64,000 nt of DNA from a virus (Duplodnaviria; Caudoviricetes), in the IMG/VR virus record IMGVR_UViG_2830161386_000001, positions 64,001-128,000 of that record; one strand, given 5' to 3'. Shown here piece after piece: positions 2,846 to 56,976 of the stretch. Made by a program: the position numbers and the translations under genes. Numbering within the stretch: the first letter of the stretch is position 1; each line of letters starts with the position of its first letter. The notes under the pieces are model-generated. The model ran no database searches. It was not told where the DNA came from and saw nothing but the letters and a program-made list of their open reading frames with translations.

Positions 2846-2865
2846 AAGGGGTTCCTAATTCTTGG

Positions 2866-30194: not shown

Positions 30195-30926
30195 TCAACC
30201 GCCCGGCGCAAGTGAGATCTGAAACGACCGCTCTCCCTCCCCCCGGTCTACCGCCCGGCTCGCGCTTATCCGGTCGTTAATCGGGCGCTTGAGGTAAGAC
30301 TCGATGAGCGAAAGATCTTTTTCCTTCCGGTCGCGCTTCCGCTTCGCTTTTGCAAGGCGCTTCGCTGCGGTTTCGGCCGTTTGCCGCCCGGGGTTCCTAT
30401 ACTGCTTGACGATGCTTTTGCCCGGCAAAACGGCGCCAAGGGCTTTTGACCCGAGGTTGTATCCCGCCCGGCTCATTTGAGCCCGCGCCTCTGCTACTTC
30501 CTGGGCCGTATCGGCATTGAGGTCTTTCTCGACCGCGTTTCGGTGCATCTCAAACGACTCGCGGGCCGCGCCCGGAAGCGTAAACGGGCCCAGAAGCACG
30601 TCTTTACCCGCTTTCCCGGCCAGGGACGCGGCCTCGGACACCGACTCCGCGACCCCGGCTGGCGCCGCCTCCATGCCCCCGGACGTGGCGGCGTTATAAA
30701 GCGTCCCGGCCGCCCCGCCAAGCGCGTTCATCGCCCCGACCGACGCGGCGGCTTTTCCCGCCCGGATCAGGTGGTCGGGCACGACCCCCATTTCGTACTT
30801 CTGGTGGGGGTAGAGCTCCTCGTCCATCAGCCTCCGCTCCTCCCGCCCGACGTAGTTTCGGAGGTCGCGGACGCCCCAGTTGATCGGCGTCGTTTTTGGA
30901 ACGTGTGCGTTTAGCTCCTCGGGCAT
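30195..30926 (-). CDS. Hypothetical Gly/Ala-rich head-module protein
   Basis: 243 aa; its start overlaps the stop of the protease gene (TAATG). Confidence 0.6.
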   Translation of the reverse strand: MPEELNAHVPKTTPINWGVRDLRNYVGREERRLMDEELYPHQKYEMGVVPDHLIRAGKAAASVGAMNALGGAAGTLYNAATSGGMEAAPAGVAESVSEAASLAGKAGKDVLLGPFTLPGAARESFEMHRNAVEKDLNADTAQEVAEARAQMSRAGYNLGSKALGAVLPGKSIVKQYRNPGRQTAETAAKRLAKAKRKRDRKEKDLSLIESYLKRPINDRISASRAVDRGEGERSFQISLAPGG

Positions 30927-32884
30927 TACGTGTGGCGAAGTGCCGATTGAATTAGCGCGGCGTTCACGTCCGGCGCGTCGTGGCGGGTCGGCTCTTCAAG
31001 CACCCAATCGACCTGCTGGCTCGCGACTTTTTGAAGCCCGGCCATCGACTCCCCGATTCGCCGCATCCGGCGGCTGGCCTGTTTCCGGAGGGCCGACTCC
31101 TTCTGCATCGCGCTCTCGGCGGGGCCGTATACCTGCGTATTTCCGCCCGTGCCCCGAATAAACTGCGTGACCGGAAGGGTCATCATCCCTGCGTCTCGGG
31201 GGCGGCGCCGGTTGCTGCGCCGGGCCCGGCGGGCGGCCAGTTGCCGGCGGGGCCGCCGGCGGCGCACGTCCCGCCGGATGGTCTGCCGCTGGCGCCGGGG
31301 CACGCGGCCTTCGGTCCATTGGCCCTCCGCCAATACGTTGGCAATTGCCTCCAGGACCGAAGCCTGCTCGACTTCCTCTCGCGCCCGCCGGTTCCGATTC
31401 ATTCGTATTCGGCGCCGCTCCTCGGGACTGGCCATCGCGGCGGCGCGCCCAGGGGTAATTTCTTGCCGGTTTCGGACGTACGGGTTCGGCCCGAGGGCCC
31501 CGCTTTTCTCCAGGCGACGCGAAAGGTGAAGCGGGTGGTAGCTCCGCTTGTCCATAAGCCCCTCGTCACTGGCAATTTTCTCGTAGAGGCGGCCGTTGAC
31601 GTGCGGGGGGCCGACCTCCAGTCCGCCCTCCTTCTTGTTTTCCGGCGACAAGACCGACCCGGTTTTCCGAAGCCGCCGGGCCAGCTCCGGCGCCCCTGCT
31701 TTGGTAAGGGCCACGTGCTGAAGCTCAACCGGTCGGAGGGAAATGCCCGCCGCGGCGGCCGTCGACGCGACCGATTCCATCGGGTACCCGGCCACCGACT
31801 CCAGTGTCTCCGCCGGAATCAGGGTTTCGTTTTCCCGGAGCGCCTGAACCGCTTCTTTGATGCGCTCCTCGGTTTCCTCGGGCAGCTCCTCGACGTCGGC
31901 CTGGACCCGCTTTTTGATGTAAGAGGTTTTCCCCTCTTCGTTGTCGGGCGCTTCAGATGCGGGCGCTTCAGATGCGGATTTGCGCCAGCGAAGCGGCTTC
32001 TCGCCCCCGAGTCCGGCCTCCTCCGCCGCGTCGGCCGAGAGTCGGACCTCGTTTTGGCCAGTCGAAGCGGCCTTCGCAAACGCTTCTTTGCTTCCGCCCC
32101 TGGCCGAGGCGCCGCCGTCTTCTAGGTCTCCGGTTGCGGGATTGTTGATTTCGGTGCCGTCCCCGACCGGAAGGCGGCTGGTAGCGACCGCCCGGCTTGT
32201 CGGGTCCGCCCGGTCTTCAACAAACGAGATATCGAAGAACTTCCCCTTCGGGTTGCGGGCGTGGACGATGTGGCCGTTGGGCTTGACCTCCAGCATGTTT
32301 TTCCGGAGGTGGTCGCAGTACTCCGCCCGGCTTGAGGCCTTGTTGCCACATACGCTGCAAGTATCGTAAGCGGCCCGGAAGCCCATGCTTGTTGAGACGG
32401 GCTCGTAGTTTCGGATCTTCTGCGCGATCATCGGCGCTTTGTCCGCGTTGAGGTGGGCAACCAATTCCACCCGGTCCATCTTTGGGTTGAAGAAGCTCTT
32501 TTCGACCGTCCCATAGGCCGGGGAGTCGTCCCGGTTGATGTGATGCTTGTAGGGGCGGGCAAAATGCTCGAAGGACTTGTACATCGGGACTTCCAGAGAG
32601 CCCTCCCCCTCCGGCGGGGTCCCGTAGTCCACGTTCCCGAGCAGGTCCTCCCGGTAAAACCCGTCGCCGTTTTTGTTCGGCCCGATCCGGTCGAACGAGC
32701 TCAAGGCCGTAATCAAGAGGCGCATCGTCCCGTCGCCTGGGCTCGCGGCCTGGTCAAGATACGACCGCACGTCCGGGTGGACCTCGCTTGCGGTTTTGTC
32801 CAGCGAGCCAGAGGCGGGGTGGACCAGCGCCTCTCCCGTCGCGTCCGGGCGGGAGTCGTACTGAACGAGCTTGTCTATAGCCAT
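30926..32884 (-). CDS. Putative prohead (capsid maturation) serine protease with Zn-finger and C-terminal extension
   Basis: GPNKNGDGF, PYKHH (candidate His), VSTSMG (candidate Ser), CSVC...YCDH and FFDISFV..AD fit HK97/assemblin-like maturation proteases. Lies upstream of scaffold and capsid genes. Confidence 0.65.
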   Translation of the reverse strand: MAIDKLVQYDSRPDATGEALVHPASGSLDKTASEVHPDVRSYLDQAASPGDGTMRLLITALSSFDRIGPNKNGDGFYREDLLGNVDYGTPPEGEGSLEVPMYKSFEHFARPYKHHINRDDSPAYGTVEKSFFNPKMDRVELVAHLNADKAPMIAQKIRNYEPVSTSMGFRAAYDTCSVCGNKASSRAEYCDHLRKNMLEVKPNGHIVHARNPKGKFFDISFVEDRADPTSRAVATSRLPVGDGTEINNPATGDLEDGGASARGGSKEAFAKAASTGQNEVRLSADAAEEAGLGGEKPLRWRKSASEAPASEAPDNEEGKTSYIKKRVQADVEELPEETEERIKEAVQALRENETLIPAETLESVAGYPMESVASTAAAAGISLRPVELQHVALTKAGAPELARRLRKTGSVLSPENKKEGGLEVGPPHVNGRLYEKIASDEGLMDKRSYHPLHLSRRLEKSGALGPNPYVRNRQEITPGRAAAMASPEERRRIRMNRNRRAREEVEQASVLEAIANVLAEGQWTEGRVPRRQRQTIRRDVRRRRPRRQLAARRARRSNRRRPRDAGMMTLPVTQFIRGTGGNTQVYGPAESAMQKESALRKQASRRMRRIGESMAGLQKVASQQVDWVLEEPTRHDAPDVNAALIQSALRHT

Positions 32885-40035: not shown

Positions 40036-40070
40036 AAGGGAAGTTGTTGGTTGGCCGGTAAGGGGCGGCG

Positions 40071-40349
40071 CTATATCGAGACGCCGGGCGTGATGTCGTC
40101 GCTTCGGTCCTGCCCTCGGGACCGGGCGAAAAGTTTCTCGAAATCCTCTTGGCGAAAGGCTTTGACCTGCCCACTCGGGTAGCGGACGACCCAATCGCCA
40201 GGGTGAACGGTGATTTTGTGCGGGCCCATTTCAATCTCTTCTGAGCTCCCGCTAATTTGCCGCGCCTCCACCTGAACGGGCTTTTGGACGGCAGGGGACC
40301 ACTGGCTCTTCTCCGGGCCATTCCAGTACTGCTCTGCGTCTTGGTCCAT
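40071..40349 (-). CDS. Small phage protein with PGDW motif
   Basis: HPGDWVVR....VKAFRQEDFEKLF pattern, common in phage hypothetical proteins. Confidence 0.6.
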   Translation of the reverse strand: MDQDAEQYWNGPEKSQWSPAVQKPVQVEARQISGSSEEIEMGPHKITVHPGDWVVRYPSGQVKAFRQEDFEKLFARSRGQDRSDDITPGVSI

Positions 40350-43825: not shown

Positions 43826-46800
43826 CTACTCCGTCATGTCCACGTCGGTGTCCCCCTGGTCGTGGTCCATCGTCTCGGGGTCGATGTCCTGCATGTCCGG
43901 CGTGGACTGGACGTCCGGGGAGCCCATCTCCATTTCCTCCGGCATCTCCGGGTCCGGCATGTCAAAATCGAACCCTTCTTCGAAAAGGGATGGCTCGTCT
44001 TCTGCCGTAGTTATGGTGCCGTTCTGGTCGGCATATTTGCGTTTCTGAGCGGGCTGCTGGCCGCCTGAGCGGTTTACGTAGCTGTAGCCCCCGTACCCGG
44101 CGGCCCCGGTCAAGCCCGCTCCTATGATCGCGTCACTCATCTGACTGGCCCGCGCCTGGCCGGAAAGCGGAACCCGAAACTCCGTGTCCGTGCCGCCTGT
44201 CGATTCGGCCCGAGAAAGGTCCACCGGGCTCACCTCCGACACCGCGTTGGCGTCGGTCGTGTCCGCGACGCCGGGCATTTTATTCGGCACCTCCAGCTCG
44301 TCTCCACCGGATTTGATGCCGGGCACGAGCCGCCGGCCCTCGTCGGTCGCGACCTCCCACATCTCGGGCCCGTCGCCGTTTCCGGCAAACACGACATTAT
44401 CCCCGTTCATGTCCGGCCCGTTGAGCTTTTCCGGGCGGGCCCGGACCGTCGGGTTCGGAACCCCATCCACGTCTTGAAGGAAGTTCTCAAACTTGCTCGG
44501 AGAGGGTGCGTCGGTCTTATTCGCGAACTGGACAAACGCGTCCGCTACCTTTTTTTTAGAAGCCTCTTTTCGCTGGGCACTTGCCGCAGCGGATTCCTTG
44601 GAGAAAAGCCCAAAGAAGCGGTTGTCTTTTGCCTTCTGGGCCAGCTCGTCGAACGACTGGTTTGTGTCGGAAATCTCGTCGGCCACCCCTTCCATTCGGT
44701 CCATAAATTCGTCCGCCCTGGAGGTCCCCTCATCTACGTTTCGGCGCACGTTTCCGAGATCCTCCGCCGCGCTTTGCATATCGCGGAAGGCCTGGTCTGC
44801 CTCGTCCATGGTCCGCTTCGCCTGTCGGCCGAGGTCCCGGGCGCGCCCGGCAAGTTCCCGCCCGCCGCGAATGGCCGCCGGGCCTGCTGCTCCAAGCGCC
44901 CCACCAACAGCGCCGGACCGGGCGAGCCGGTACGGGTCAATCCGCTCTTGCCGGCCGGAGCGGATTTCTCCCCTTTGCTTCGCGTAGTTGAGGCCAGTTC
45001 CGGCCGCCCCGCCTGCAAGCCCGCCGCCAACCGCAGCAAGTGGCACGGCGCTTTTGCCCATGCTGGCTCTCTTTGTTTGCGGGCCGCTCCCCGGCGGCAT
45101 CTCTTCAAGGGCCTGGTTTCGCACTTCATCGTTCAGGCTTTGTGTCGGCTCTGGGTCTTCGGTAAGCTCGTCACTTAAATGCCGAGCACCCTGGTATGCA
45201 CCGTATCCGCCAAGGGCCGCTCCTCCAAGAATCAATGGCGATGCCGCACCGGGTTTGAGGTCCAACTTTGAAGCAAGCCCCGCAGCTCCAGCCCCACTAA
45301 CTGCTCCACCAGATAGCGCCCCCAATGCACCGTTTAGGCTTTTTGCCTGCTCTTTGCGGCGGCGACGACGACGATTTTCCGTTCGTTTTTGGGCAAGTTC
45401 TTTTGCACTTGCGTCCAGCTCTGGACTAGCTGGTCGAGAGGCTTTTACCCCCCCACCAATTTGACGCTGAACATAAGTACCATCTGGGCGCATTGTTACC
45501 GCAGAATCAGCCGGCATTCCCGATACAAGTGGCCGCCGCTCACTGGACGCCTCTTTATGGACATCTACCGGCTTTTGATCGGTCTTCTCCCAGTCCCCCT
45601 CTCGGATTTTCTCTCGAACCGCGTCGGGACGCTCGGTCCACGAGGCGTCATCGGTCGAGAGCTCAACCGTATTGTCTCCGACCCCCTCGACGGTTACCAT
45701 CTTGTCGTTCAGATGCGAGTAGTACTTGCGCTGCGCGATAATTGGCGGAGACGTGCTCCCAGTTTTTTCCTCGACAAACTCCTCTGCGCTTACGTTTTCG
45801 GGGCTATAATACTCGATTGTGTCCATATTCAGCCTAGCTTCGCTTCCGCCTAGAATCCCGCCAAGAGATCCTGCAAGACCCCCGCCTATCATGCCTTCCG
45901 CCGGATTCATATCTATCTTCCGGACCGCTCTCGCTCCACCAGCGCCCCCAAGAACGAGTCCTCCAGCAAGCCCTACGAGCGGAAGAGCGTCTCGAATCGG
46001 TTCTGTAATTTGCTCGTTTTTGTGCTCAGCAACGAGCCTATCGGAATCTTCGTGCGCCGTAAGCGGTACGTATCCAGTCATGTTGCCGCTCCGGATGTTT
46101 CTGCGGGGGGCCTCATCAACACCGCCCTTCATTTCCGATACGCTTGAGGCCGTCTGGTTTGGGGGCGTGTACTTGTGCGGCTCCCCAAACCCGTACTCGT
46201 ATGTGGGCGTGGCGCTGGCCTGCTCGTCCATATATTCGGCCCGCTCCTTAACAAAATCCGGGCCGCGGCGACTCCACGTTGATATCATCCGTGCTTTCGT
46301 CGGGTCCTCCGCGCTTACGCTTTCGGAGTAGCTATCAAAAGCAGTTTTTTCCTTGCCCTTACTAAAAGATGCCTCTTTTGCGCCAAATACGGGCCGATAC
46401 GCCGTTGACCCGTCCTCGCGCTGAACCTCTTCCGTCCCAGTGACAATTTGCTCTGAGGGGCCTTCAATCTGTCGCCCGAGTCCAGCCCCACTATATCCCC
46501 CTGCAACCGCAAGCGCGGGAATTCCAATTGCTGCCGCAACCGGCTCATATCGACGTGGAACCGCTCGCGTTAGTCCCGCTCCCGCAGCCCCGCCTGCAAG
46601 GCCCCCTCCCATTGCCCCGGGCAGCTCGGCTCCAGTAGACGCTTCAACTTCTCCCATATCCCGCGCCTCTGCTCGGGTATGGTACCCCTTTTGGGACGCC
46701 TCCTTTCCCACGCCTGGCGGCGCAACGTCTCGGAGCGTTGGGCCTGACGGCTCTGTTTTTCCAATTAGCTTTCGGACTTGTGGCCCTAAAGACGCCCCCG

Positions 46801-47353
46801 CACCTGCGCCCAGCGTTGCCCCCATAGCGACTTGCCCCCCTTTTGAGTCAGCAATATAGTCAAACGTATCGGTGCCATACCCCAGGCCCGCTCCAGCACC
46901 TATGCCTATTGCTTCATCTGCGAGATAGGTTTTAGCCGACCCCTCTTTTTGCCCCGTGACGCGGCGCACCTCGTCTTCTCCCATCACGTACACATCGGCC
47001 TTAACGGAGTCCATCCCAAGGCGATCTGCCGCTAAAACCCGGTGGTGCCCGTCCATGAGATGATGATCCCCCTCAATCCGGACGACTTGCACCGGGTCTT
47101 CCTCCCACTCCTCGACGTTTGAGAGCATCCAGCCGAGCTTTTCGACGTCGTAGGTCCCTTGGGCCCCGTAGTCAATCTTGCCCAGCGATAGGTCTTTTTC
47201 GGTTTGCTCCGGGCTACGGTGGTTCATAATTTTCTTCCGCCGGTGGAGCGTTACGAGCGGCGACTTGTCGAGGCGCTCAATCGGGGCGGTGCTGTCGCGG
47301 GACTTCCCGCTACCGGGGCCGCCGCTGGATTTAAGAAGTGTAGGTCGGTCCAT
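43826..47353 (-). CDS. Polyprotein (1175 aa) with N-terminal ParB/Srx-like domain and Gly-zipper modules
   Basis: DPVQVV...LMDGHHRVLAADRLG (ParB-N signature), then modules separated by KEGS/KEAS/EKTA/EKTG, each with paired Gly/Ala hydrophobic segments. Confidence 0.7.
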   Translation of the reverse strand: MDRPTLLKSSGGPGSGKSRDSTAPIERLDKSPLVTLHRRKKIMNHRSPEQTEKDLSLGKIDYGAQGTYDVEKLGWMLSNVEEWEEDPVQVVRIEGDHHLMDGHHRVLAADRLGMDSVKADVYVMGEDEVRRVTGQKEGSAKTYLADEAIGIGAGAGLGYGTDTFDYIADSKGGQVAMGATLGAGAGASLGPQVRKLIGKTEPSGPTLRDVAPPGVGKEASQKGYHTRAEARDMGEVEASTGAELPGAMGGGLAGGAAGAGLTRAVPRRYEPVAAAIGIPALAVAGGYSGAGLGRQIEGPSEQIVTGTEEVQREDGSTAYRPVFGAKEASFSKGKEKTAFDSYSESVSAEDPTKARMISTWSRRGPDFVKERAEYMDEQASATPTYEYGFGEPHKYTPPNQTASSVSEMKGGVDEAPRRNIRSGNMTGYVPLTAHEDSDRLVAEHKNEQITEPIRDALPLVGLAGGLVLGGAGGARAVRKIDMNPAEGMIGGGLAGSLGGILGGSEARLNMDTIEYYSPENVSAEEFVEEKTGSTSPPIIAQRKYYSHLNDKMVTVEGVGDNTVELSTDDASWTERPDAVREKIREGDWEKTDQKPVDVHKEASSERRPLVSGMPADSAVTMRPDGTYVQRQIGGGVKASRPASPELDASAKELAQKRTENRRRRRRKEQAKSLNGALGALSGGAVSGAGAAGLASKLDLKPGAASPLILGGAALGGYGAYQGARHLSDELTEDPEPTQSLNDEVRNQALEEMPPGSGPQTKRASMGKSAVPLAAVGGGLAGGAAGTGLNYAKQRGEIRSGRQERIDPYRLARSGAVGGALGAAGPAAIRGGRELAGRARDLGRQAKRTMDEADQAFRDMQSAAEDLGNVRRNVDEGTSRADEFMDRMEGVADEISDTNQSFDELAQKAKDNRFFGLFSKESAAASAQRKEASKKKVADAFVQFANKTDAPSPSKFENFLQDVDGVPNPTVRARPEKLNGPDMNGDNVVFAGNGDGPEMWEVATDEGRRLVPGIKSGGDELEVPNKMPGVADTTDANAVSEVSPVDLSRAESTGGTDTEFRVPLSGQARASQMSDAIIGAGLTGAAGYGGYSYVNRSGGQQPAQKRKYADQNGTITTAEDEPSLFEEGFDFDMPDPEMPEEMEMGSPDVQSTPDMQDIDPETMDHDQGDTDVDMTE

Positions 47354-47392
47354 TAGTCAAGTCTTGCTTTGTAGGGCGCTTGCCCAGTCTAT

Positions 47393-50300
47393 CTACAAGC
47401 GGGGAATATCTAGCTCATTATCGACTTCGCGCTTGTACTGCTTGTACCGGGGCTTCGCGAGCACATAGGCGTCTTTGAGGCGCTTTTTCTCCCCAATGAT
47501 GCGCCCTCGGTCCTCCGGCGTTAGCTCCTCGTTTGCCCGGTCGAAGCTCTCAACGCGCTCGTCAACGTGGGGGCCGTGGCCAACGACTACGTCCATATCA
47601 TCGCCGTCAACGGTGCCGGACATAACGTACACTCCGTCTCGAAAACGGTTGTACGGGCTGCTTTCCAGGTCGGTAAACTTCTCCCGCACCTCCTCAATTT
47701 TGCTTCGGTACTCCTCGTCGCTGCCAGTTGGAATCGTGACGTCGATGTCAGAATCGTCATCGGGGACGTTAATGCCAAGTCCCATCGAGCCGTGCAGGCG
47801 CACCTTTTCGCCGAAGAGGTCTTTAAGCCGGTCTTGATCCGGCGCCTCCTCCTCTGCTCGCCGGGCCAGGTCTCGAAGCTCCTCTTTGTCTAGGTCCAGG
47901 TTCCCGTACACCTGATCTCGGAGCTTCGATACTGCCGACATGACCGTATCTGGGGCAGCAGTTTTCTCCTTTGCTGATTCGTTCAAATGTTGATACGCGC
48001 CACCAGCTAACGCCACGCCTCCTGCTCCGAGTGCCGCTCTAATACTGCCTTTATTCATCCGTTGAGCATTTCTGCCCAACCGCCCCGCCTCTTGACCCAC
48101 CTCGTAAGTCTGCAAGTACATTTTACGCAATTCACGTTCTTCTGGCGTAAACCCGTTTCCAAAACGAGAATTAGCCAGGTTTTGAGCCCGGTCCCACGCT
48201 CGCCGCTCTTCTCGTACTAAAGACGAATCAGGGTTTTTGCCCATTAGATCCTGCAAAACACCAGCTTGATCAGACTTCAACTTCTTGGTTTCTTTGAACC
48301 CTTCCAGCTCCCCATCAAAATCTTTGAAGTTCTTAAAGTGTCCAAGCTCATGCAAAAAACCAGCTCGATTTGAAGGCTCACTAACCATTATTCTTAGACT
48401 TTCTGAATCAGGTGTGATTGAGCCGGTGGCCGAATCTGATATACCAAATGCATCTTGTTTCCCTTTAACGACTTCGCCCGCAAAACCTTCTTGCCTCGCT
48501 AGATCCGTTGCCGCCTCAATGTTAGGGGCATCAGGCGCCGAACGCTCTAAATGTCTTGCTCGTGATCTCACTTCTCGCTTTAGATCGTTTTTGAGATTCT
48601 TCTGTGCCTCATCATAGTAAATGTGACCACCACGCATTGCCAAAGAGCCCGCCCCGAGGGCGCCTGCCGCAGCGCCGGCAGCCTCATCAACCTCAATTGA
48701 ATCGCTACCAGAAAATCCTTCGTTTTTATCGTCTACCGCCCCCTCTTTTTCGGCAAGATAGGCTCCTCCCGCCAAAGCCGGAGCCCCAACCATCCCAGCT
48801 CTCCCGGAACGGCTCAACCCCCGCCCCACTGACTCCAAACCTGATTGAACTTGCTTCAAGGGTTGCCGAAGAACGCTATCATAAGATTGGGCTGAGCCCT
48901 TTGTCCCTTCTACCATGCGGTGATAAGAGAGCTCTTGAAAAACGTCATGTGCCGCCCCTCCTGACCCCTTCATAATCTTAGATTGCTCCTCTGGCGCAAG
49001 CGATTTCAGGTCCTCCACGCTTGAGACGTCATAGCCCATTTTTTGCGCCTTCCCGAGATAGTTTTGCAAATGGGCCTCACGTCCGTTCAGATCGGAAGGG
49101 TCAGTATCCGAAGAAACACCAAGAGCTTCTTGTACTACGTGCTGAGCATCTTCAGCAACATTTCCGCCTGAAGACCCTGATTCTTGAATGGCTTTCTCTA
49201 CCTTCTCAGACAGGCTGCGAATTGACTCGTCAGGAACGTCATTATATTTGAATCCTTTTTTCAGCTCTTCATCTAGGGCGCTCATATAGTCTTCTCCACT
49301 TGCAGCCCGATTTTGCGCTGCCATTCGTGCTCCAATAAGGCGCTTACCCGTGTCTTCGACTGGATCGTCAAAGCTCTCTCCGTAAAACTGCGCGTGTCCG
49401 AATATCGGCCCTTTTTCAAACGCATCGTAGTGCGCCCGTTCAGCAGTTTGCGGCAACCCAGTCTGGTCTGAGAAATTCCGCATTGCCGGATTGTTAATAG
49501 CAGACATCATATCTGCCCCCGACACCTCACGTCCAGATATAGGAACTCGAAACTCTTTCTCTCGAAGGGTTCTTGATCCCGACTCAAAGTACTGATTCAT
49601 TGCCCGGGTGGGATCGTCAATATTTCTCATGCCCCCTACTTCCTCAAACGAATTAAGCCCTTTTTCTGTGACCAGTTTTGCACGGTCGGATTCAGGAAGG
49701 CGCTTTCCAGCAGCGTCCGTTGCTTTCCCCCCGGCCATGCCCACACCAGAAGCTAAACCAGTTTCTTCTTCTGAAAGCTGGTCGTCACCTAAGTCAATGC
49801 CACTAAGAGATAAGTCGTTTAATCCCAGCTGGGACTGAGGGGCCGCTTCTTTTTCTGCCTCTTCCTTTCTTTTTTCTGCTTCTTCCTCCAGAAGCTTAAT
49901 CAGCTGGTCGCTCAGTTCCTGCTTCTCTTTTGCGAGACCCTGAATGTACTCCTCGACCGAACCGGTCATGGTTTTGTCCCCGCCGAACACCGACCGGACG
50001 GCGTTGGACACCGATTTTTCGGGAAGCTCGGAGACATACCGTTTCACGTCGACTTGCCGCTCCTCCTCCGGTAGGCCCTCATGGCTTTTGTACCGGTCGG
50101 CGCGGGCAACCACCTGGTTGATCTTCTGCTCGTTCCAATGGGGCTCCATCACGTGAATCTCGTTTACCGCGTCGAGGTCAAGCCCCTCCCCGCCGGCCGA
50201 CGACATCACGAGGGTAGAGAGTTCTCCTTCGTTAAAGCGGCGCACGTCTTCTTCACGCTTGGACTGAGACGTGCTTCCGGTATACTCCCCGTAGTCAACG

Positions 50301-53300
50301 CCCTTCTCGTCGAGAACGGCCCGAAGCGGGTCAAGCCCGCTTTCCAAGAAGTTTGAGTAGACGACCTGCCGTTTCGAGGAGTCGTCTACCGCCTCCGCAA
50401 TCTCTTGAACCTTGGGGGAGTCCTGCCCGGCCTCAAGATCGGAGGCGTCCTCGTCAAACGCGTTGATTGAAGTTGCCACCTGGCGCGGCCCGTTCAGAAA
50501 CTTCATCATCTTGCCCCGCTCGTCCTTGTCCGGCGGCAGGTTGCTCTGCACCTTCCACCGGAGGTGCATCGGAAGGTCTTTAAACATGTACCGGTACGCG
50601 TCTTTCTGGCGCTTAGACATCGGCACGCTGACCTCCTCTTCCTCGACGTCCGGGTAGTTTTCGTTGTCGCGGTCCGGCTCGTAGTAGTCGACGTACTGGC
50701 GGAGCGGCTTTCGGAGGCTCTCCTTGCCGGTCTCTAGCTTTTTCTTGATGCCGGGCGTGCCGCCGGTTACCCGGTAGGCCAGTCCGCTTAGGCCGCCTGG
50801 ATACTCCTCCTCTTCGCGGACGTACTTCGTCTCGAATCGGGACTTGGTCTCCGGCAAAAGGTTTTCTCCTGCCGAGATGTTGACCAGAGGAGAAATCTCG
50901 TGCGGGTGGTTGTATACCGGAGTTCCGGTCATAAGCAGGTTCTTTTCCGCCGGGGTCTCCCGGAGGCGCTTCTTAAACTTGCTGCCCGTCGAGCGGGCGC
51001 GGTGGGCCTCGTCAACCACCCGCATGTCGGTTTTCTCGTCTCGGGGGCCCTCCATCGTGGCCTTCGTGTGGCTTTTTGGCTGGGGCGTGCCGCCGGTAAT
51101 GCCTTCATCGGTGTGCTTTTCAACCTCCTTGCGGAAGTTTTCCCGAAGGGAGGCCGGCGTTAGCACCCGCAGCATCGAGTCGGGGTCTTCTTGCCGAACG
51201 TCTTCCAGCGCGCTAATTGCGGATAGCGTTTTCCCAGACCCCATGTCATGAGCAGCTACAAGACCTTCTTGATTTTGCAAACGGTCCCGTACTCTCTTTT
51301 GGTGGGGCCGAAGCTCCGTGTTCAGATCTGAGTTTTTTTTAATTGAAGACTGTTTGTCTATGGCTGGCCTTCCATAACGCTCATTTGCTACGGCCATTTC
51401 TTTCGTCAATCCAGTTTTGGCCTCACGCTTTTCTGTAAGGCCGGAGTTAAAATCCATTGGCGCTGCCCTGGCGGTTTTTTCACCTTGTTGCATTGCTTCG
51501 TTAGCTGCATACCCACTAGCGGCAAGAAGGCCAAGCCCGGCGCCTCCTTTCCCAACCCCCTTTGCAAACCGACCCGAGTTCTTCCTTGCGTATTCCATCA
51601 CCTCATCGACGCTCAAGGGGTTGTAACCATCGCTTCCTTTGATATACTTGGGGTCGATGCCATGATCAAATACCCGAGATTTTTCTAATTCACGAAACTC
51701 CGCCCGGTGCTGCATCTGTCGCCCGGGAATATCAGCAAGAGGGTCCGTTTTTTTCTTCTCCACCAGAAATTCGTCAAGATTCCCGCCAGTTTCTGGGTTC
51801 GTTACTTCATTAATTTCCTCTTTCCACGTTGGAACTGATATATCAACTCGTTCCCCCAATCCCATTCCCGGAACCTTAACGCGAAGCAGCCCAAGCGGGT
51901 CTTGCATAAGCTTCTTCGGACCACCTGCAACAGCTTGCTCCCCGTACATTTTTGCTTGTGCCTTTTCCGGGGTTGTATACGTTTTACCCTTCGACTCTTC
52001 AAATACACTGGGCCGCTGGAATTCTAACCCCCCAAGATTTGGCCCAGACCCTTGCGAGGGCCTGAGGCCCTCTTGCCGAATTGACGCTGCTGCCTCTGGA
52101 GTAGTACCGTGATAAAGGGTTTCTCGGCCCGTGATGTCAGGCTTGGCAGACTCAAAAGTCTTTTTGCTTCCATAAAGCCCTGCGGCTGAGAGCCCAGCAA
52201 GCTGCTTATCTTTATCTAAGCCAGCTTTATCACTCACAAGAAGACGCTCCGAATCTGCTGTCTTTTCCGACCCTTCAACCACGTCTTCAAGATCGTACCG
52301 GGCCGACTCGTCTGCGTCTTGGTCCTCTGGCCAGAGGTCTTTTATCGACCAGTGATTGGCCGAGTGCGGGTCGTCTTTCGTGGGGTTTCCGTCCCCGTCG
52401 GTAATGCCCTTCGCTCGGGCAAGATAGTTTTGCTTCGCGTCTTCGCTGTAGTTGTGCTTGTGGTCGGAGGAGCCGTAGTGAATGAGCTTCACGCGCTTCT
52501 CCCCGTCTACATCTTTTGAGGCGAGCACCGCCCGCTTCTTCCCGTCTCGCCAGGACTCAACCGGCTGGTCAACCGGCATCCAGCGGCCCCGATATTTTGC
52601 CTTGGTCGTCCCGTTTTCCTCTTCAGTCTCTAGGTCTTTTAGTTGCCGCGCTCCCTCTTTCAGAAATGCCTTGTCGCTAGCGGTTTTCTCGCTTTGCAGT
52701 CCCAGCTGGGATCCTATGGCTTGACCTGTTTCGTTCTGGGCCGATTCCTTTTGCATTCCAGGCTGGACTTGAGGCGAGACGCGGGCCCGGTTTGGGCTCA
52801 GGCGCTGGGACTGCGGCGCGAGCGGACCGGCGGGGTGCCCTACGTTTTGCGCCGCCCGCTCTACGCGGCGCTGCTCCCGGCGCTCCTGCGGAGACAGTTT
52901 GACGTTCGGCTGCGTAGCGCGGTAGCCGTAGTTTCCCGCCAGCCCGGCGCCGGCGGCAAGCCCCGCTCCTGCGAGCGTTTTCCCGTCTCGCTTTAGCGCC
53001 TCCCCCGCGTCGCTGATGCCACTAGAAATCGAGTCTCCCGCCTCCCGCATCGACTGGCGGAACTGAAAGCCCAGGTCGTTGTCGACCATTTTCTGCCCCG
53101 CCTCCATGCGCATGTCTCCAAAGAGGTCCTCCACGCGGCCAGTCGCCTCCTCTGCCGACATCGACTCGGTCGGCGGCGCGTCTCCCATCTCTTGTCGTTT
53201 TTTGAACTCGCTCAAGGCGTCTTCGAAGCTGGGCATGCTCACGTCATCGCCCATGCCAAAGAGCTTTTTGCCCTTATTTAGCGCCGCTCCAAATACACTC

Positions 53301-53911
53301 CCTTTCGCTTCTTTCAAGGCAGACGCCTCTTTACGGCCAAACTCCGACTCTTGGCCGGCGGCCATTTGCCGGCCGGAATCCGCCTCTTGTCGAGGCGTCA
53401 CCTGCGGGGCGGGTGAGCTGCTCTGCGAACGCTGCATTTGATAGGCACTCTGCCCGCCGCTCAATTGGCCGGGCGCAGCTCTTGGAGCCGTCCCCGTGTA
53501 CATGTCCTCGTCCTCATCGAGAAAGTTGCTAATTGCGCGCTGCCCGGCGTAGGTCGCCGCACCTGCGCCAAGGCCCATCCGGGCTGCCCGCCGGCCCACG
53601 CCGCCTTCGACAAAGGGACGTCCTATTGACTTTAGAAAATTAGGCACATCGGCGTTCTTAAGACGGTCTAGCGATTCGGTCTCAGGCGAGGGCTTGGCCG
53701 CCTCGATCCCGCCGAAAATAATGGCCGACCCGGTTGCCTCACCGATGTCCTTTTCCTGCCCCTTCGAGAGGCCCCCGGCAAAGTCCTTCCGCTCCTCGTC
53801 GGCAAACTCAAGAAGGGCATTCCCGCCTTGGCGTGGCGGCGCCTGCCCCATCGTAGGGCCTGGGTCGGCAGCGGGACGGCCAGAAGAAATGTCGTTTTGA
53901 TCAGTAGGCAC
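47393..53911 (-). CDS. Polyvalent protein (2172 aa): ART-like, SNF2 helicase, zincin metallopeptidase and Pol-beta-type nucleotidyltransferase domains
   Basis: LYHGT...IRQEGL (ART-like); HDMGSGKT, DEAH, MTGTP, GEGLDL, QVVARADR (SNF2/SF2); FLHELGH (HExxH); LHGS....DSDIDV (NTase). Confidence 0.8.
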   Translation of the reverse strand: MPTDQNDISSGRPAADPGPTMGQAPPRQGGNALLEFADEERKDFAGGLSKGQEKDIGEATGSAIIFGGIEAAKPSPETESLDRLKNADVPNFLKSIGRPFVEGGVGRRAARMGLGAGAATYAGQRAISNFLDEDEDMYTGTAPRAAPGQLSGGQSAYQMQRSQSSSPAPQVTPRQEADSGRQMAAGQESEFGRKEASALKEAKGSVFGAALNKGKKLFGMGDDVSMPSFEDALSEFKKRQEMGDAPPTESMSAEEATGRVEDLFGDMRMEAGQKMVDNDLGFQFRQSMREAGDSISSGISDAGEALKRDGKTLAGAGLAAGAGLAGNYGYRATQPNVKLSPQERREQRRVERAAQNVGHPAGPLAPQSQRLSPNRARVSPQVQPGMQKESAQNETGQAIGSQLGLQSEKTASDKAFLKEGARQLKDLETEEENGTTKAKYRGRWMPVDQPVESWRDGKKRAVLASKDVDGEKRVKLIHYGSSDHKHNYSEDAKQNYLARAKGITDGDGNPTKDDPHSANHWSIKDLWPEDQDADESARYDLEDVVEGSEKTADSERLLVSDKAGLDKDKQLAGLSAAGLYGSKKTFESAKPDITGRETLYHGTTPEAAASIRQEGLRPSQGSGPNLGGLEFQRPSVFEESKGKTYTTPEKAQAKMYGEQAVAGGPKKLMQDPLGLLRVKVPGMGLGERVDISVPTWKEEINEVTNPETGGNLDEFLVEKKKTDPLADIPGRQMQHRAEFRELEKSRVFDHGIDPKYIKGSDGYNPLSVDEVMEYARKNSGRFAKGVGKGGAGLGLLAASGYAANEAMQQGEKTARAAPMDFNSGLTEKREAKTGLTKEMAVANERYGRPAIDKQSSIKKNSDLNTELRPHQKRVRDRLQNQEGLVAAHDMGSGKTLSAISALEDVRQEDPDSMLRVLTPASLRENFRKEVEKHTDEGITGGTPQPKSHTKATMEGPRDEKTDMRVVDEAHRARSTGSKFKKRLRETPAEKNLLMTGTPVYNHPHEISPLVNISAGENLLPETKSRFETKYVREEEEYPGGLSGLAYRVTGGTPGIKKKLETGKESLRKPLRQYVDYYEPDRDNENYPDVEEEEVSVPMSKRQKDAYRYMFKDLPMHLRWKVQSNLPPDKDERGKMMKFLNGPRQVATSINAFDEDASDLEAGQDSPKVQEIAEAVDDSSKRQVVYSNFLESGLDPLRAVLDEKGVDYGEYTGSTSQSKREEDVRRFNEGELSTLVMSSAGGEGLDLDAVNEIHVMEPHWNEQKINQVVARADRYKSHEGLPEEERQVDVKRYVSELPEKSVSNAVRSVFGGDKTMTGSVEEYIQGLAKEKQELSDQLIKLLEEEAEKRKEEAEKEAAPQSQLGLNDLSLSGIDLGDDQLSEEETGLASGVGMAGGKATDAAGKRLPESDRAKLVTEKGLNSFEEVGGMRNIDDPTRAMNQYFESGSRTLREKEFRVPISGREVSGADMMSAINNPAMRNFSDQTGLPQTAERAHYDAFEKGPIFGHAQFYGESFDDPVEDTGKRLIGARMAAQNRAASGEDYMSALDEELKKGFKYNDVPDESIRSLSEKVEKAIQESGSSGGNVAEDAQHVVQEALGVSSDTDPSDLNGREAHLQNYLGKAQKMGYDVSSVEDLKSLAPEEQSKIMKGSGGAAHDVFQELSYHRMVEGTKGSAQSYDSVLRQPLKQVQSGLESVGRGLSRSGRAGMVGAPALAGGAYLAEKEGAVDDKNEGFSGSDSIEVDEAAGAAAGALGAGSLAMRGGHIYYDEAQKNLKNDLKREVRSRARHLERSAPDAPNIEAATDLARQEGFAGEVVKGKQDAFGISDSATGSITPDSESLRIMVSEPSNRAGFLHELGHFKNFKDFDGELEGFKETKKLKSDQAGVLQDLMGKNPDSSLVREERRAWDRAQNLANSRFGNGFTPEERELRKMYLQTYEVGQEAGRLGRNAQRMNKGSIRAALGAGGVALAGGAYQHLNESAKEKTAAPDTVMSAVSKLRDQVYGNLDLDKEELRDLARRAEEEAPDQDRLKDLFGEKVRLHGSMGLGINVPDDDSDIDVTIPTGSDEEYRSKIEEVREKFTDLESSPYNRFRDGVYVMSGTVDGDDMDVVVGHGPHVDERVESFDRANEELTPEDRGRIIGEKKRLKDAYVLAKPRYKQYKREVDNELDIPRL
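49823..49834. repeat. Palindrome copy 8 (polyprotein junction)
   Basis: taaTCCCAGCTGGGActga; translation EKEAAPQ-SQLGL; near a GC-content step. Confidence 0.9.
52700..52711. repeat. Palindrome copy 9 (polyprotein junction)
   Basis: gcagTCCCAGCTGGGAtcc; translation QKESA...G-SQLGL-QSEKTA. Confidence 0.9.
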
Positions 53912-54860
53912 GGCTGTCGGTGTCGTTTTCGGTACCTTCCTCGGGAAGAGAGTCCGGGGCGCTTGCCTCGGGCAGCTCCTCGGAAGGGGTGTCGTCAGCG
54001 TCTAGGACCTCGTCGTTTTCTGCTTGCAGGTCTTCGGGGGACACCTCCGTCGACTCCAAAGCGCGGTAGTCGTCAATGTCCTGGTCGATCTCGTCCCACA
54101 TATCCTCGAAAAACTCCCCCAGCTCAATTGCTTCCTCTTCGTTGGTGCCGATCTCTTGGGCCGCCTGCGTCACGATCATCGTCGTCCGCTGAAACGAAGC
54201 GATGTTCTTGTACCGCCGGGTATCTCCGATGCCGTCCTCCTGCATCAGCTCCCGGCTTAGCTGCTGAGAGAGCCGGGTGTTGATCATCGCCATGCGTTTC
54301 AGCTCCTTTCCGGCCTGAAAGCCCCGCACCGCCCCCCAGTCGACGCGGGCATCGGTCAAGCTGCGGCTTCCGGCAAGCACCGACCGAAGCGGGCCGCCGT
54401 CCCGAAAACAGGCACTCGCGTAGGTCTGCACTGCCTCCGGGTCCGCCCCCGAGAAGTTCCAGAAGAACGACGCGTAGTCCAGAACGTCCAGAAGCCCGAG
54501 CTGAATAACCTCGTCTCCAATCGACTGGTAGTCCCGCCACGCCCGCTCGACGGCGCCTTTCAGCCCGAAGCCCCGCTGGAAATAGAGAAGCAAAAACTCG
54601 TCGAGGGCCTCCCGAGAGCGGCTCCGCGGCAGCTCGACAAACGACTCGACCTGGCGGGAGAAGCTCCCGATGCCGATGGGCGTCTCAAGCTCCCCAGCTG
54701 AAAACTCCTCCCCGTCGGGCCGAAACCGGCTGGGCACCGAGCGGTCGCAGATCGCCCGGGCGTGACGAAGCGCCTCCTGGCGAAGTCGCTGACGGGTATT
54801 GGCCCGCCCCCGGCTCTGCTCGGCGGCATAGTATGGAAGGTGCCGGTAGGGCGTCCACAT
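53901..54860 (-). CDS. Hypothetical protein (319 aa, acidic tail)
   Basis: Operon-embedded ORF that overlaps the start of the next gene. No motif recognised. Confidence 0.6.
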   Translation of the reverse strand: MWTPYRHLPYYAAEQSRGRANTRQRLRQEALRHARAICDRSVPSRFRPDGEEFSAGELETPIGIGSFSRQVESFVELPRSRSREALDEFLLLYFQRGFGLKGAVERAWRDYQSIGDEVIQLGLLDVLDYASFFWNFSGADPEAVQTYASACFRDGGPLRSVLAGSRSLTDARVDWGAVRGFQAGKELKRMAMINTRLSQQLSRELMQEDGIGDTRRYKNIASFQRTTMIVTQAAQEIGTNEEEAIELGEFFEDMWDEIDQDIDDYRALESTEVSPEDLQAENDEVLDADDTPSEELPEASAPDSLPEEGTENDTDSRAY

Positions 54861-54906
54861 CAGCGGTGCGGCAGGTTGTTAAAGGGGCTTTTTACTGAAT
54901 GGGCTT

Positions 54907-56976
54907 TTACTGAACAGACTTCAGCTCCTTGAGGCCGTCGATCACGGAATCGAGCGCGGAGAGCGCCTCCTTGGCTACGTCTTCCTCGATGATGTCAACC
55001 GCCCCGGTCCGGATCCGGTAGAGAAGCTCCGCCACTGCTCGTTTCGAGGACTGAAGTTCGTCGGTCGCGTCGGTAAATTTGTCCGCGTTGTACTGGTTGA
55101 GCATGTTGACCGCGTTGAGCGAGTCTTGAAGCTCCTCGCCCCGCTCTTGCCCAGGGGCCTGAAGCTGCTGGCGGTCCTGCCGGCGCTTTTCTTGAGGAGA
55201 CTCCCGCGCCTGCTCCTGCTTGCGCCTTCGCTGGGCGGCCTCCTGCCGGGACCGCTGCGGGCGCCTCGGCATCATCGGGTGCTGGGGCGCGGGGCCGGCC
55301 TGGCGCATTGCCTGCGGAGCGCGGGCGGCAAGCCGGTTGATCGCCTGCCGGCCACGGGCCCACTTCTCGATCACGGAGGCAACCTTCTCCTGCGCCGCCG
55401 ACCCGTCCGGCTCGCTGCGCCGCCCGTCTTGGGCGTGGGGCTCCAGGCCCTCGACGCGCACGGAGCGCTGGCTGTCGGCGCTTGTGGCCTGCTTGACGGC
55501 CGTCTGGGCGGACTCCGGCGTGGCGCCGAGGCTCTCTAGCAAGCCGACCATGCGGGTCGGGCTCTCGGTCTGAGAGTAGTTTCCGTTCCGAATCTCCACC
55601 GCCCGGCCGGTCTTGGACAAAAAGTACTCTGGCCCCTCTCGGCTGGCCTCCTTCTCTTCGGTATCCGGCATCAGCTCCTCCGCCTCTACAAACTGAATCT
55701 CCTCCGGCACGATGTACCGGGAATTCCCCCGCGGGCTGTCGTCCTTCCCAAGCTGGCGGACCTTCGGCATTACCTCCGAAACCTGGAGGTACGTCCGGCC
55801 TTCCAGCCGCGACCGGAGCGCGAGAAGAAAGTCGTTGGACTCGTCTTGAATCCACTCCTCCGTATACACCGGGCCGCTAAGAGCGGGCGGCCCCTCCTCC
55901 TGCGGAATCACCAAAAAGCCCCGCGCCCCGACCGGGGCGTCCCGGACCGGAACCGACCCGGAGAGCGGGTCCCCGCTTGAGCTGGCAGTATCGGCCGGCG
56001 CGGTAATCGGCTGCATGTACCCGCCCTCGTCGCCGAGGAAGACGTGACCGGCCGCCATGCCGTCTGGATACGGCGACCGGAGGCGAACAAGGCGGTAGGC
56101 GGTTCCGACCGGCCCGCCGTCCCCAAGCCGGACCCGGTCCCCCGGCTCGAAGCGGTTGATCTCCCCGCCGTCCGAGCGGTCGATCACCATCGCCTTTTTG
56201 TCCAAGTCGCGCTTGCTTCGAATTGTCGTCCCGCTTTCCATCGCCTCCCGGGCCCATTTCGCGAGGCTCGACTCCGGGTCTTCGAACATCTCGTGGCGAC
56301 TTGCGGTGACGTCGACGGTCCGCTCCCCCTGCGAGAAGCCCGCCAGCTTAAAGCGATCCCCGTGAAGCGGAGACTCTTCGTGCTCGACGACCATCGTGTC
56401 CCACGTCCGGCCCGGCTGCCCGCTTGCCCGCTTTTGAATCCGGTCGAAGCTCTCGGCAAGAGCGGGAAAGTCCTCAGTCACGTGGGCCTTCATCCGCTCG
56501 CAGTCCTCCGAAAACGAGGAGGTGGAGGACACCTTCTGGATCATCCCGTCGCTTTTGATGGCCGTCCCGCCCCCGTACATCGGCTGCCCCGCATGCGGGC
56601 GGACGTCGCGCCCGACCTGAACCTCGCCCCGCTCGGGGTGCTGCATGCCAACCGACTCGTCGAGAAGGTCCATCTTCCCGTCGGGCCGGAGGTAAAGGTC
56701 GACCGGCTTGAGCTCAAAGTCGCGGACGACAATTGGGATCCGGATCGGCTGGTCCCCGACGCGGGCGGTCATAATGCCGACCGCATCGCCGGAGGTGTCG
56801 TCCACCGGCTCGACCGACCAGTCAATGTCGCCCTGAAGCCGGTCGGCTAGATACGGGTGCATGCGGAGCACCCGCTTCATGATTTCATCCGTCCATTTCG
56901 ACGGGTCGTTCGACAGGCGCATGCCCGCCTGCTTTTGGAAGATGTCGGAGGAGAGGCCTTCGATATTGCGGGGCAT
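54907..56976 (-). CDS. Large head-module protein of unknown function
   Basis: Likely start MPRNIEG at 56976. K-x-A motifs (QKQA, QKRA, DKKA, EKEA, EKVA), an R/Q/P-rich insert and a helical C-terminus. Confidence 0.6.
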   Translation of the reverse strand: MPRNIEGLSSDIFQKQAGMRLSNDPSKWTDEIMKRVLRMHPYLADRLQGDIDWSVEPVDDTSGDAVGIMTARVGDQPIRIPIVVRDFELKPVDLYLRPDGKMDLLDESVGMQHPERGEVQVGRDVRPHAGQPMYGGGTAIKSDGMIQKVSSTSSFSEDCERMKAHVTEDFPALAESFDRIQKRASGQPGRTWDTMVVEHEESPLHGDRFKLAGFSQGERTVDVTASRHEMFEDPESSLAKWAREAMESGTTIRSKRDLDKKAMVIDRSDGGEINRFEPGDRVRLGDGGPVGTAYRLVRLRSPYPDGMAAGHVFLGDEGGYMQPITAPADTASSSGDPLSGSVPVRDAPVGARGFLVIPQEEGPPALSGPVYTEEWIQDESNDFLLALRSRLEGRTYLQVSEVMPKVRQLGKDDSPRGNSRYIVPEEIQFVEAEELMPDTEEKEASREGPEYFLSKTGRAVEIRNGNYSQTESPTRMVGLLESLGATPESAQTAVKQATSADSQRSVRVEGLEPHAQDGRRSEPDGSAAQEKVASVIEKWARGRQAINRLAARAPQAMRQAGPAPQHPMMPRRPQRSRQEAAQRRRKQEQARESPQEKRRQDRQQLQAPGQERGEELQDSLNAVNMLNQYNADKFTDATDELQSSKRAVAELLYRIRTGAVDIIEEDVAKEALSALDSVIDGLKELKSVQ

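Follow-up and report, generated by a model that had tools for sequence, protein, structure and literature searches.

Within a stretch of 64,000 nt from a tailed virus (bases 64001-128000 of the 197,771-bp IMG/VR record IMGVR_UViG_2830161386_000001, which has direct terminal repeats; the whole stretch is called the window here), a single unbroken open reading frame (ORF) of 2172 aa at 47393..53911 on the minus strand contains the entire finding reported in this work. The encoded polyprotein consists of seven modules joined by short linkers that end in E-K-x-A, sometimes with SQLG ahead of it. Three of these modules, namely an ADP-ribosyltransferase-like (ART-like) unit, a unit of a rare family, and a unit with an HExxH motif, are self-contained helix-enzyme-helix units, which also exist as stand-alone genes in large phages. 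Taken together, we read the ORF as a polyvalent cargo polyprotein that would be processed by the prohead protease at E-K-x-A and whose helix-enzyme-helix cassettes are exchanged between viruses, and we assign this joint reading a probability of about 0.6. An earlier note on this DNA had described the common layout of the three units and had interpreted them as recently acquired effector cassettes with helices that target a membrane or an ejection conduit. The observation was confirmed, and the interpretation as a whole was partly supported. While polyvalent proteins and protease-processed internal proteins are already known, the helix-enzyme-helix cassette form found here is not mentioned in the papers that were searched.

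Modules of the putative cargo polyprotein

The polyprotein ORF starts with GTG, with an ATG at codon 21, and matches the Pfam families SNF2 and Helicase_C as well as phrog_62 and phrog_220. Modules M1 to M7 were drawn at the E-K-x-A motifs (aa 408, 549, 811, 1353, and 1982) and at one E-K-E-G motif (aa 1721); all module and site coordinates given below lie on the minus strand. The E-K-x-A positions are the borders of the domains delimited by Pfam and PHROGs, and both domain matches fall within M2 and M4. Every peptide quoted in the earlier note was located where it had been placed, and the presence of an SNF2 ATPase, an ART fold, an HExxH unit, and a pol-beta nucleotidyltransferase motif in one chain bears out the polyvalent-protein theme that it had recognized.

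The N-terminal module M1 (aa 1-409; 52685..53911) contains two Gly/Ala helices (aa 109-124 and 310-330), matches no family, and is colinear with aa 491-880 of the relative P0003. M2 (aa 410-550; 52262..52684) has no such helices and carries a domain common to phrog_220, 'minor head protein and DNA pilot' (aa 436-544, E 1.2e-23, covering only profile positions 517-621 of 1338). With 47-71% identity to relatives, it is the best-conserved module. M4 (aa 813-1354; 49850..51475), which is likewise free of helices, is an SNF2-type ATPase with GSGKT at aa 891-895 and DEAH at aa 967-970, and its SNF2 matches extend over aa 833-1356 (PF00176, E 3.9e-16; Helicase_C, E 8.1e-14; phrog_62, E 1.3e-51). The C-terminal module M7 (aa 1984-2172; 47396..47962), again without helices, is a pol-beta-type nucleotidyltransferase with the motif HGSMGLG..DDDSDIDV at aa 2040-2060; its match to PF01909 reached E 5e-4 and 20.8 bits at a cut-off of 21.

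The remaining three modules are the helix-enzyme-helix units. In M3 (aa 551-812; 51476..52261), helices at aa 570-583 and 785-804 enclose an ART-fold enzyme with LYHGT at approximately aa 598-602. M5 (aa 1355-1725; 48737..49849) has helices at aa 1383-1398 and 1705-1720 around an all-alpha domain with an HY..F.KGP motif, and M6 (aa 1726-1983; 47963..48736) has helices at aa 1743-1762 and 1955-1974 around HELGH (aa 1854-1858) and EERRAW (aa 1901-1906). The latter motif follows 43 residues after HELGH, and both are kept in 4/4 aligned units. Gly/Ala-rich, uncharged helices flank the three units just as the earlier note had described, but they are not exclusive to them, as the high-GC module M1 also has two. 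It had gone unremarked that the helices are part of the enzyme units, move together with them, and persist in their stand-alone homologues. As far as activities can be predicted, the helices sit on units that would not act on DNA (ART-fold, HExxH, and M5) and not on the SNF2, ParB-like, or nucleotidyltransferase modules.

Searches with M1, M5, and M6 in Pfam, NCBIfam, and PHROGs gave nothing useful, and M6 had no match in Pfam or in a PDB sequence search. Overall, the PDB sequence searches with M6, M2, a 709-aa ORF, the capsid-protein candidate, and the protease were empty or returned one His-tag artefact. The M5 family is rare, with 7 matches among 1.84 billion representatives, the best non-self match being P0006 at 29% identity. 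Stand-alone helix-M5-helix proteins were found in P0037 (392 aa) and P0038, both of non-halophile composition. P0034 and P0036 were not counted as M5 relatives, being repeat proteins aligned over short stretches.

For the ART-fold unit M3, a word search yielded 14 stand-alone homologues of 251-433 aa (12/14 at 251-280 aa), which were aligned with the units of the window and of the relative L002 to give 16 sequences. Y50 and H51 of LYHGT, N155, Y206, G209, Y213, and E220 are invariant in 16/16, with P156 and E157 close to invariant, and the two terminal helices are retained across the alignment. H51 corresponds to the NAD-binding His in the first strand of the ART superfamily, and N155, P156, E157, and E220 are candidates for the remaining catalytic residues (Tyr/Glu of the H-Y-E class, or equivalents). 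The family profile found Tpt1 (Tpt1/KptA) in the PDB at E 0.001 with LYHGT aligned. The AlphaFold model of M3 reached a predicted local distance difference test (pLDDT) score of 74.4 and a predicted template modelling (pTM) score of 0.68, with the core near 90; the terminal helices were predicted to be helical, at a pLDDT of only 40-60. The top rows of a Foldseek search with this model were exclusively ART-fold proteins at weak E values (best 2.3e-3), and a BFVD search gave weak matches to unnamed phage proteins (best E 7.8e-4). M3 is predicted to be an ART-fold enzyme nearest to Tpt1/KptA, and the (L)YHGT motif is common to M3, Tpt1/KptA, and the ART superfamily.

M3 stayed below the Pfam gathering cut-offs for PARP (PF00644, 12.3 vs 26.7 bits) and PTS_2-RNA (PF01885, 11.5 vs 26 bits). 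Among the 16 family members, 5 matched the former and 3 the latter, all sub-threshold, and the NCBIfam scores were likewise below cut-off. The Pfam ART/MPTase-PolyVal models gave no match. The Tpt1 alignment is limited to chain residues of approximately 91-181, the NAD lobe, and the N-terminal RNA-binding lobe of Tpt1 is absent in M3, which has about 45 residues before LYHGT with a Gly/Ala helix among them. Because the family scores were sub-threshold and only the NAD lobe was aligned, M3 was filed as an ART-fold enzyme and rejected as a Tpt1 orthologue. Unlike Tpt1/KptA, it also has Gly/Ala helices at both ends and a low-confidence insert (model aa 116-132).

The ART unit was present in 15 IMG/VR loci of GC 0.30-0.60, with parent contigs of 22-384 kb (most 57-384 kb). 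In both loci with annotated neighbours, it lies among head genes: in L003, it adjoins the protease and the capsid protein, and the L015 copy belongs to a 1279-aa polyprotein flanked by portal and capsid genes. In the GC-0.30 loci L010-L014 and L017, whose parent contigs measure 57-384 kb, reading with table 11 splits the frame of the ART unit into short open frames, which could reflect a reassigned stop codon or pseudogenes.

Border motifs, candidate processing, and flanking helices

The module borders carry E-K-T-A at aa 408-411 (M1/M2; 52679..52690, preceded by SQLGLQS), aa 549-552 (M2/M3; 52256..52267), aa 811-814 (M3/M4; 51470..51481), and aa 1982-1985 (M6/M7; 47957..47968), E-K-E-A at aa 1353-1356 (M4/M5; 49844..49855), and E-K-E-G at aa 1721-1724 (M5/M6; 48740..48751). 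Four EKTA sites in the polyprotein compare with 0.05 expected, and 0/5000 shuffles reached four. At the DNA level, the five E-K-x-A sites are alike over only approximately 8-11 nt. In an unselected genome-wide tally, 23/48 EK.A motifs fell in the head block, which has 14.5% of the residues. In the shuffle test, the tail group had 1 against 1.4 expected, and the 3826-aa tail ORF had none. The candidate prohead protease (652 aa; 30926..32884, minus strand; phrog_18299/phrog_2774) has 39% identity to the protease of L003 over 210 aa (E 9e-33), and the ORFs beside it contain 9 (1383 aa), 4 (366 aa), and 3 (156 aa) of the motifs.

Related loci show the same pattern. In L003, four small head-module ORFs open with M.NKYLEK.A, and the scaffold-like ORFs have 3-7 [EQ]K.A; across L003, L004, and L006, small head-module ORFs begin with M.NKYLEK[IV]A and scaffold-like ORFs have several [EQ]K.A. 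The capsid-protein candidates of the window (28226-29161, minus strand) and of L003 (14374-15267, a phage of GC 0.44) share as their only BLAST-detectable similarity HTKEAS, at residues 26-31 in both, which may be a conserved maturation site. In the manner of a leader, one short motif spans the capsid-protein N-terminus, the scaffold-like ORFs, and the cargo of this virus. We infer that the virus's own prohead protease recognizes E-K-x-A. By analogy with T4 Alt and the T4 internal proteins, the polyprotein would enter the procapsid, be cut into separate cargo proteins, and be delivered with the DNA.

Alternatively, K-x-A might not be a prohead-protease site at all, and the chain would either be processed by its own HExxH module or not be processed, with the motif as a conserved linker. 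Processing by zincin-like peptidases was proposed for polyvalent proteins by Iyer et al. (2017; PMC5512222), who also describe the N4 virion RNA polymerase as packaged uncut, and an HExxH unit does exist within the present polyprotein. However, an enrichment of K-x-A is likewise seen in scaffold-like and other head ORFs and in proteins of L003, a locus with a homologous protease, it stands at residues 28-30 of both capsid-protein candidates, and one metagenome contig without the HExxH unit retains the flanking modules. We therefore regard this alternative as distinctly improbable and favour the prohead protease over a zincin as the processing enzyme here.

The same theme with other leaders was observed in different phage lineages (L009, L010, L012, L015, and P0011). 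Several small head-region ORFs there start with MIILRE.L[YF]S or MIIKRKLFSKK and have Gly/Ala helices, and in the polyproteins of L015 and P0011, recurring L-T-x-F and I-[RQ]-F-A motifs separate the helix-rich segments. These repeats resemble the Prp/L27-type cleavage motif of Firmicutes phages.

With regard to the flanking helices, the earlier note had viewed them as membrane-insertion or conduit-targeting elements that anchor released effectors or build an ejection channel, which we consider possible but doubtful. Each helix has 4-9 small-xxx-small motifs with 1-5 triple zippers, a basic patch (mean net charge +3.1) lies ahead of the C-terminal helix in 16/16 ART-unit sequences, and a Tyr stands at the helix end in the listed sequences. 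The 1383-aa ORF matches the glycine zipper 2TM family PF05433 weakly at aa 488-529 (E 0.0035), and 32/65 Gly/Ala helices of the genome are concentrated in the head block, 28 of those in the polyprotein, 1175-aa, and 1383-aa ORFs. AlphaFold also leaves the helices unpacked from the enzyme core. All of this would fit a membrane role. However, an additive insertion estimate, which is a simple sum of hydrophobicities on an approximate scale, gave +7.2 to +12.5 kcal/mol for nine window helices and +3.5 to +11.7 kcal/mol for 16 homologues. None came near 0, and by this estimate, the helices lack the features of a classical transmembrane helix (approximately 19 hydrophobic residues, energy near or below 0). 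The PF05433 match of 17.6 bits is under the cut-off of 24.2, and no polyprotein module matched this family. The small-xxx-small runs and the short-loop paired helices in neighbouring ORFs do resemble glycine zipper 2TM proteins, but the one sub-threshold match lies in a neighbour ORF, and the helices of the polyprotein are parted by a whole enzyme. The proposed membrane targeting was thus not upheld, given the polarity of the helices and their low model confidence, and we think that they are not classical membrane-spanning segments.

The helices may instead serve as packing or assembly handles that pair within a unit or with other cargo proteins. Such handles would gather the cargo into bundles within the capsid, attach it to the scaffold or the protease, or hold it stretched out enough for portal passage. 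In the neighbouring 1175-aa and 1383-aa ORFs, helices occur in adjacent pairs 7-10 residues apart, and the enzyme units therefore resemble hairpins with the enzyme in the loop. The helices are kept with the unit in phages of very different hosts and GC, and their polarity, too high for a bilayer, is consistent with packing. The single-chain model, in contrast, gives no confident placement of the two helices (pLDDT 40-60). This second explanation is also tentative, yet we regard packing or hairpin formation as no less likely than the hypothesized membrane role. Our best guess is that the helices associate with each other, forming a hairpin or a bundle either inside the capsid or at the envelope of the host.

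Evidence for exchange of the cassettes

The GC content at third codon positions (GC3) is 0.46 in M3, 0.47 in M5, and 0.42 in M6, compared with 0.69-0.71 in the other four modules (M1, 0.69), which agrees with the foreign, lower-GC composition that the earlier note had ascribed to the three cargo units. The best GC3 segmentation under the Bayesian information criterion had change points at aa 539, 908, 1337, and 1988. The low-GC blocks are therefore 51188-52294 and 47948-49900, close to the 51250-52270 and 47950-49820 noted before, and GC3 drops from about 0.70 to about 0.45 inside both. Three of the four change points lie at most 17 codons from a site, which random placement matched in 712/200000 trials. 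Since 4-fold and 2-fold degenerate codons show the shift to the same extent, it is a nucleotide-level signal, not one of amino-acid composition. Elsewhere in the window, two tail-protein ORFs (phrog_5939; 599-5313, minus strand) have a GC3 of 0.63 and 0.54 against a genome median of 0.72 and are likely an additional exchange hot spot.

Relatives of the polyprotein (P0003, P0004, P0005, P0006, and P0009) were taken from the 32 matches that reached E <= 0.001 when 7998 candidates were scored. They have the same module types in other order and number, and again the ART, M5-type, and HExxH units are helix-flanked, while the ParB-like, M2, and SNF2 modules are not. Homology blocks among the relatives start and end at K-x-[AG]. 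A 97%-identical block of P0006 and P0009 opens exactly at the EKTG/SSNS joint, upstream of which the sequences are unrelated, and P0005 differs from P0006 by an additional module of approximately 320 aa between DKTA and NKEA. Internal ends of high-scoring segment pairs fell within 6 aa of a site in 26/138 cases, the expectation being 7.8 and the highest count among 2000 random sets 17. The orthologous polyproteins are hence neither colinear nor invariant, in line with what the earlier note had anticipated for cassettes. The relative L002 is uniformly low in GC (approximately 0.44; polyprotein GC3 0.35), and therefore potential donor viruses of the low-GC units exist. A word search with aa 1355-1983 returned the window's own protein only, and a genome-collection search with M2 gave no close relatives or donors.

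Parts of the gene were present in 19 runs from 9 studies, one of these runs being the probable source, and contigs of four runs (X2, X3, X5, and X6; four studies, hypersaline metagenomes) were placed on 46500-55000 at a level of at least 88%. In one X6 contig, 47941 is joined directly to 49823, so that the 1881 nt of M5+M6 are missing (side 49, depth 3.3), and this joint is in frame with 0 or 45 unplaced bases; a second X6 contig spans the M7/M6 border with the arrangement of the window. Contigs of X2, X3, and X6 depart from the window at 51259 (aa 885, inside SNF2) into one identical alternative sequence, and contigs of X5 and X6 depart at 52254, just past the EKTA at aa 549-552, with the same loose-end sequence. 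An X3 joint from 51463 to 52311 that skips M3 is weaker (side 24, under the tool's caution line), and a joint from 52689 to 52767 is weak, with 77 nt, which is not a multiple of three. The depth of X3 was near zero over 47920-48771 and 51328-52179, and such gaps were counted only where a contig joins across them. Since one breakpoint, which the earlier note had not noticed, lies inside SNF2, exchange also proceeds via homologous recombination between related polyproteins.

Low GC without transfer, caused by a mutational bias or by selection acting locally on translation speed or codon usage, is a far-fetched explanation for these data. The cargo ORFs are all somewhat low in GC3 (0.60-0.66) in comparison with the core head genes (0.79-0.89), which would fit such an effect. 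Nevertheless, the steps are sharp and at or near borders, both codon classes shift by the same size, uniformly low-GC relatives such as L002 have the same unit types, and contigs from other samples replace exactly the low-GC blocks. The GC steps, the reordered relatives, and the skipping or replacing contigs support the conclusion that the three units are swapped as cassettes among related viruses, with K-x-A as their boundary, as had been suggested from the window. The cassettes would pass between co-circulating viruses of differing GC content, by exchange at the linkers, where a genome-wide intergenic palindrome provides two in-frame copies, plus homologous recombination within conserved modules such as SNF2.

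This palindrome, TCCCAGCTGGGA, is 12 nt long (extending roughly to CTCAG..CTGAG) and has 11 copies with at most one mismatch in the window, compared with 0.23 expected (12 nt each, at 10192, 13875, 19524, 25615, 29718, 33902, 36325, 43779, 49823, 52700, and 59489). Of its 37 copies genome-wide, 27 are fully intergenic against 4.1 expected with a crude ORF set. Intergenic copies often lie 35-70 nt upstream of an ATG, and one is positioned just ahead of a strong hairpin at 43764-43741 that resembles a terminator. Cargo ORFs contain three exact copies, all in frame and reading SQLG(L): at 52700..52711 (aa 401-405) and 49823..49834 (aa 1360-1364) in the polyprotein and at 36325 in the 1383-aa ORF. 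Both the X6 contig joint and an X3 loose end fall at 49823, and P0003 and P0035 have linkers of the form SQLG..EK.A as well. Apart from the palindrome pair, no repeats were detected at the borders in a search of the polyprotein ORF, and a comparable palindrome was not found in L002, L003, L004, and L015. According to PMC4122927, the PeSL promoter/terminator stem-loops mediate modular shuffling in T4-like phages and are likewise short conserved palindromic intergenic repeats at exchange points between otherwise unrelated sequences. In contrast to PeSL, the palindrome here also has its three exact copies within cargo ORFs, where they are translated in frame as SQLG linkers.

Several points weigh against the joint reading of a protease-processed polyprotein with exchangeable cassettes. 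The looser EK.A pattern occurs 5 times in the polyprotein against 1.42 expected, and 73/5000 shuffles reach 5, which is a modest enrichment. The 25 EK.A motifs in six head-side ORFs (3.7 expected; 0/1000 shuffles reach 25) come from a group picked after the counts were seen, so that the genome-wide tally is the fairer control. Cleavage, packaging, and ejection are all steps that we infer, and a MuF domain was not detected by Pfam in any part of the polyprotein. M6 is assigned as zincin-like by motif, from HExxH and the later Glu motifs only, and the structure model of M5+M6 was poor (pLDDT 50.8, pTM 0.44, below 50 across M6). While three of four GC steps coincide with module borders as the earlier note had expected, the step at aa 908 does not; it is located approximately 95 codons inside SNF2, away from the site at aa 811-814, and the initial ~95 codons of M4 lie within a low-GC block. 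A near-identical donor of the low-GC units was not found in the IMG/VR whole-protein and P0005 scans or in the M5 search. Finally, the contig joints are supportive and not conclusive because they are single, low-depth contigs, and the joints may represent replacement instead of deletion.

Genome setting and relation to known systems

All surrounding large ORFs have the same orientation as the polyprotein ORF. Because these co-oriented neighbours include the large terminase (40407-42248; PF05876, E 3e-15; phrog_675, E 1.4e-47), the head protease, and tail genes downstream, the polyprotein ORF is placed in a head-morphogenesis block. The gene order 709 aa / 319 aa / polyprotein / terminase is kept in L002. 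The virus is a large tailed halophile (salt-lake) virus, with the polyprotein probably packed into its capsid.

The cargo array continues in the 1175-aa ORF (43826..47353, minus strand), which is separated from the polyprotein ORF by a gap of only 39 nt. It opens with a ParB-like module (aa 19-145, DGHH-type) that recurs inside P0003, P0005, P0006, P0009, and P0035, contains 11 Gly/Ala helices, mostly as adjacent hairpin pairs, and has a C-terminal module common to P0003 and P0035. The 1383-aa ORF (32971-37122, minus strand) has, besides its 9 E-K-x-A motifs, 8 Gly/Ala helices and zinc-ribbon motifs at approximately aa 940-972 and is probably a further processed internal head protein. The module grammar of the polyprotein thus reaches into two neighbouring giant ORFs, which had not been remarked on before.

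Some further features of the region were recorded. An ORF with a metallophosphoesterase domain immediately follows the large terminase in the window (38350-40194, minus strand) and in the low-GC relative L002 (14984-16675), an unusual conserved neighbour for a head module. The recorded protein P0002 (1220 aa) starts at aa 953, mid-SNF2, despite the frame being open for 2172 aa, and the polyprotein gene seems to be under-called in the source record. The ribonucleotide reductase large subunit on the same strand (59559-63605, minus) is split by an intein with a LAGLIDADG endonuclease domain (aa 482-819), and a low-GC patch at approximately 61200-62250 matches the intein position. No tRNA genes were found in the 64-kb window.

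With disparate activities in one polypeptide and a head/packaging gene context (synteny with L002), the ORF has the hallmarks of a polyvalent protein. Iyer et al. (2017; PMC5512222) likewise describe unrelated enzymes in one chain, including SWI2/SNF2, ART, HExxH, and pol-beta nucleotidyltransferase. A ParB-like module (here in the adjoining ORF), the head-gene location, and solo versions that persist as separate genes are additional likenesses. Their large examples (>1000 aa) are almost all bacterial, with a paucity in archaea, whereas the present polyprotein originates from a halophile virus. In addition, processing here appears linked to a prohead-protease motif and not to a zincin. The words glycine and transmembrane are absent from that text, and the helix-enzyme-helix unit is not described there.

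By analogy, the closest functional counterpart would be the T-even internal-protein system. As described in PMC3012670 and PMC7411985, Alt and the internal proteins of T4, which have a capsid targeting sequence, and the SPN3US ejection proteins form a diverse injected cargo that includes an ADP-ribosyltransferase and shares only a short conserved leader ending at the prohead-protease site. The leader logic and a cargo set that is highly variable among related phages are common to these systems and ours. However, the units here are fused in frame into 2172- and 1175-aa polyproteins, and the leader therefore becomes an internal linker. Furthermore, the motif is [E/N/Q]-K-x-[A/G] and not L/I-x-E or A-x-E, the site here being predicted from sequence. 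The helix-enzyme-helix unit is not mentioned in the papers searched on polyvalent proteins, glycine zippers, and ejection proteins, and a 2025 preprint on haloarchaeal/nanohaloarchaeal viruses does not mention the terms polyvalent, SNF2, ADP-ribosyl, jumbo, or zincin.

A more far-reaching and, as a whole, unlikely reading is that of a portable ejection cassette common to large tailed viruses of diverse hosts, composed of a protease-site leader, a glycine-zipper helix, an enzyme, and a second helix. The helix pair would then be a handle for the exit of a capsid-packed enzyme through the tail and for its lodging at the host envelope, and in the halophile lineage, the cassettes would have been fused, with the intergenic palindrome doubling as a peptide linker and recombination joint. 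If true, the capsid would carry a polymorphic effector system whose parts are shuffled by a mechanism at the DNA level.

The polyprotein provides a large, well-delimited polyvalent example beyond the usual bacterial hosts. Because borders, candidate cleavage motif, codon-usage steps, and population variants coincide, cassette exchange in virion cargo is directly testable here. The helix-enzyme-helix unit with a conserved leader recurs across large phages of GC 0.30-0.60, and the ART-fold unit and the rare M5 family are candidate early-infection effectors. If the helices are indeed a delivery or assembly handle, they could provide a general rule to recognize ejected effectors and to load foreign proteins into capsids.

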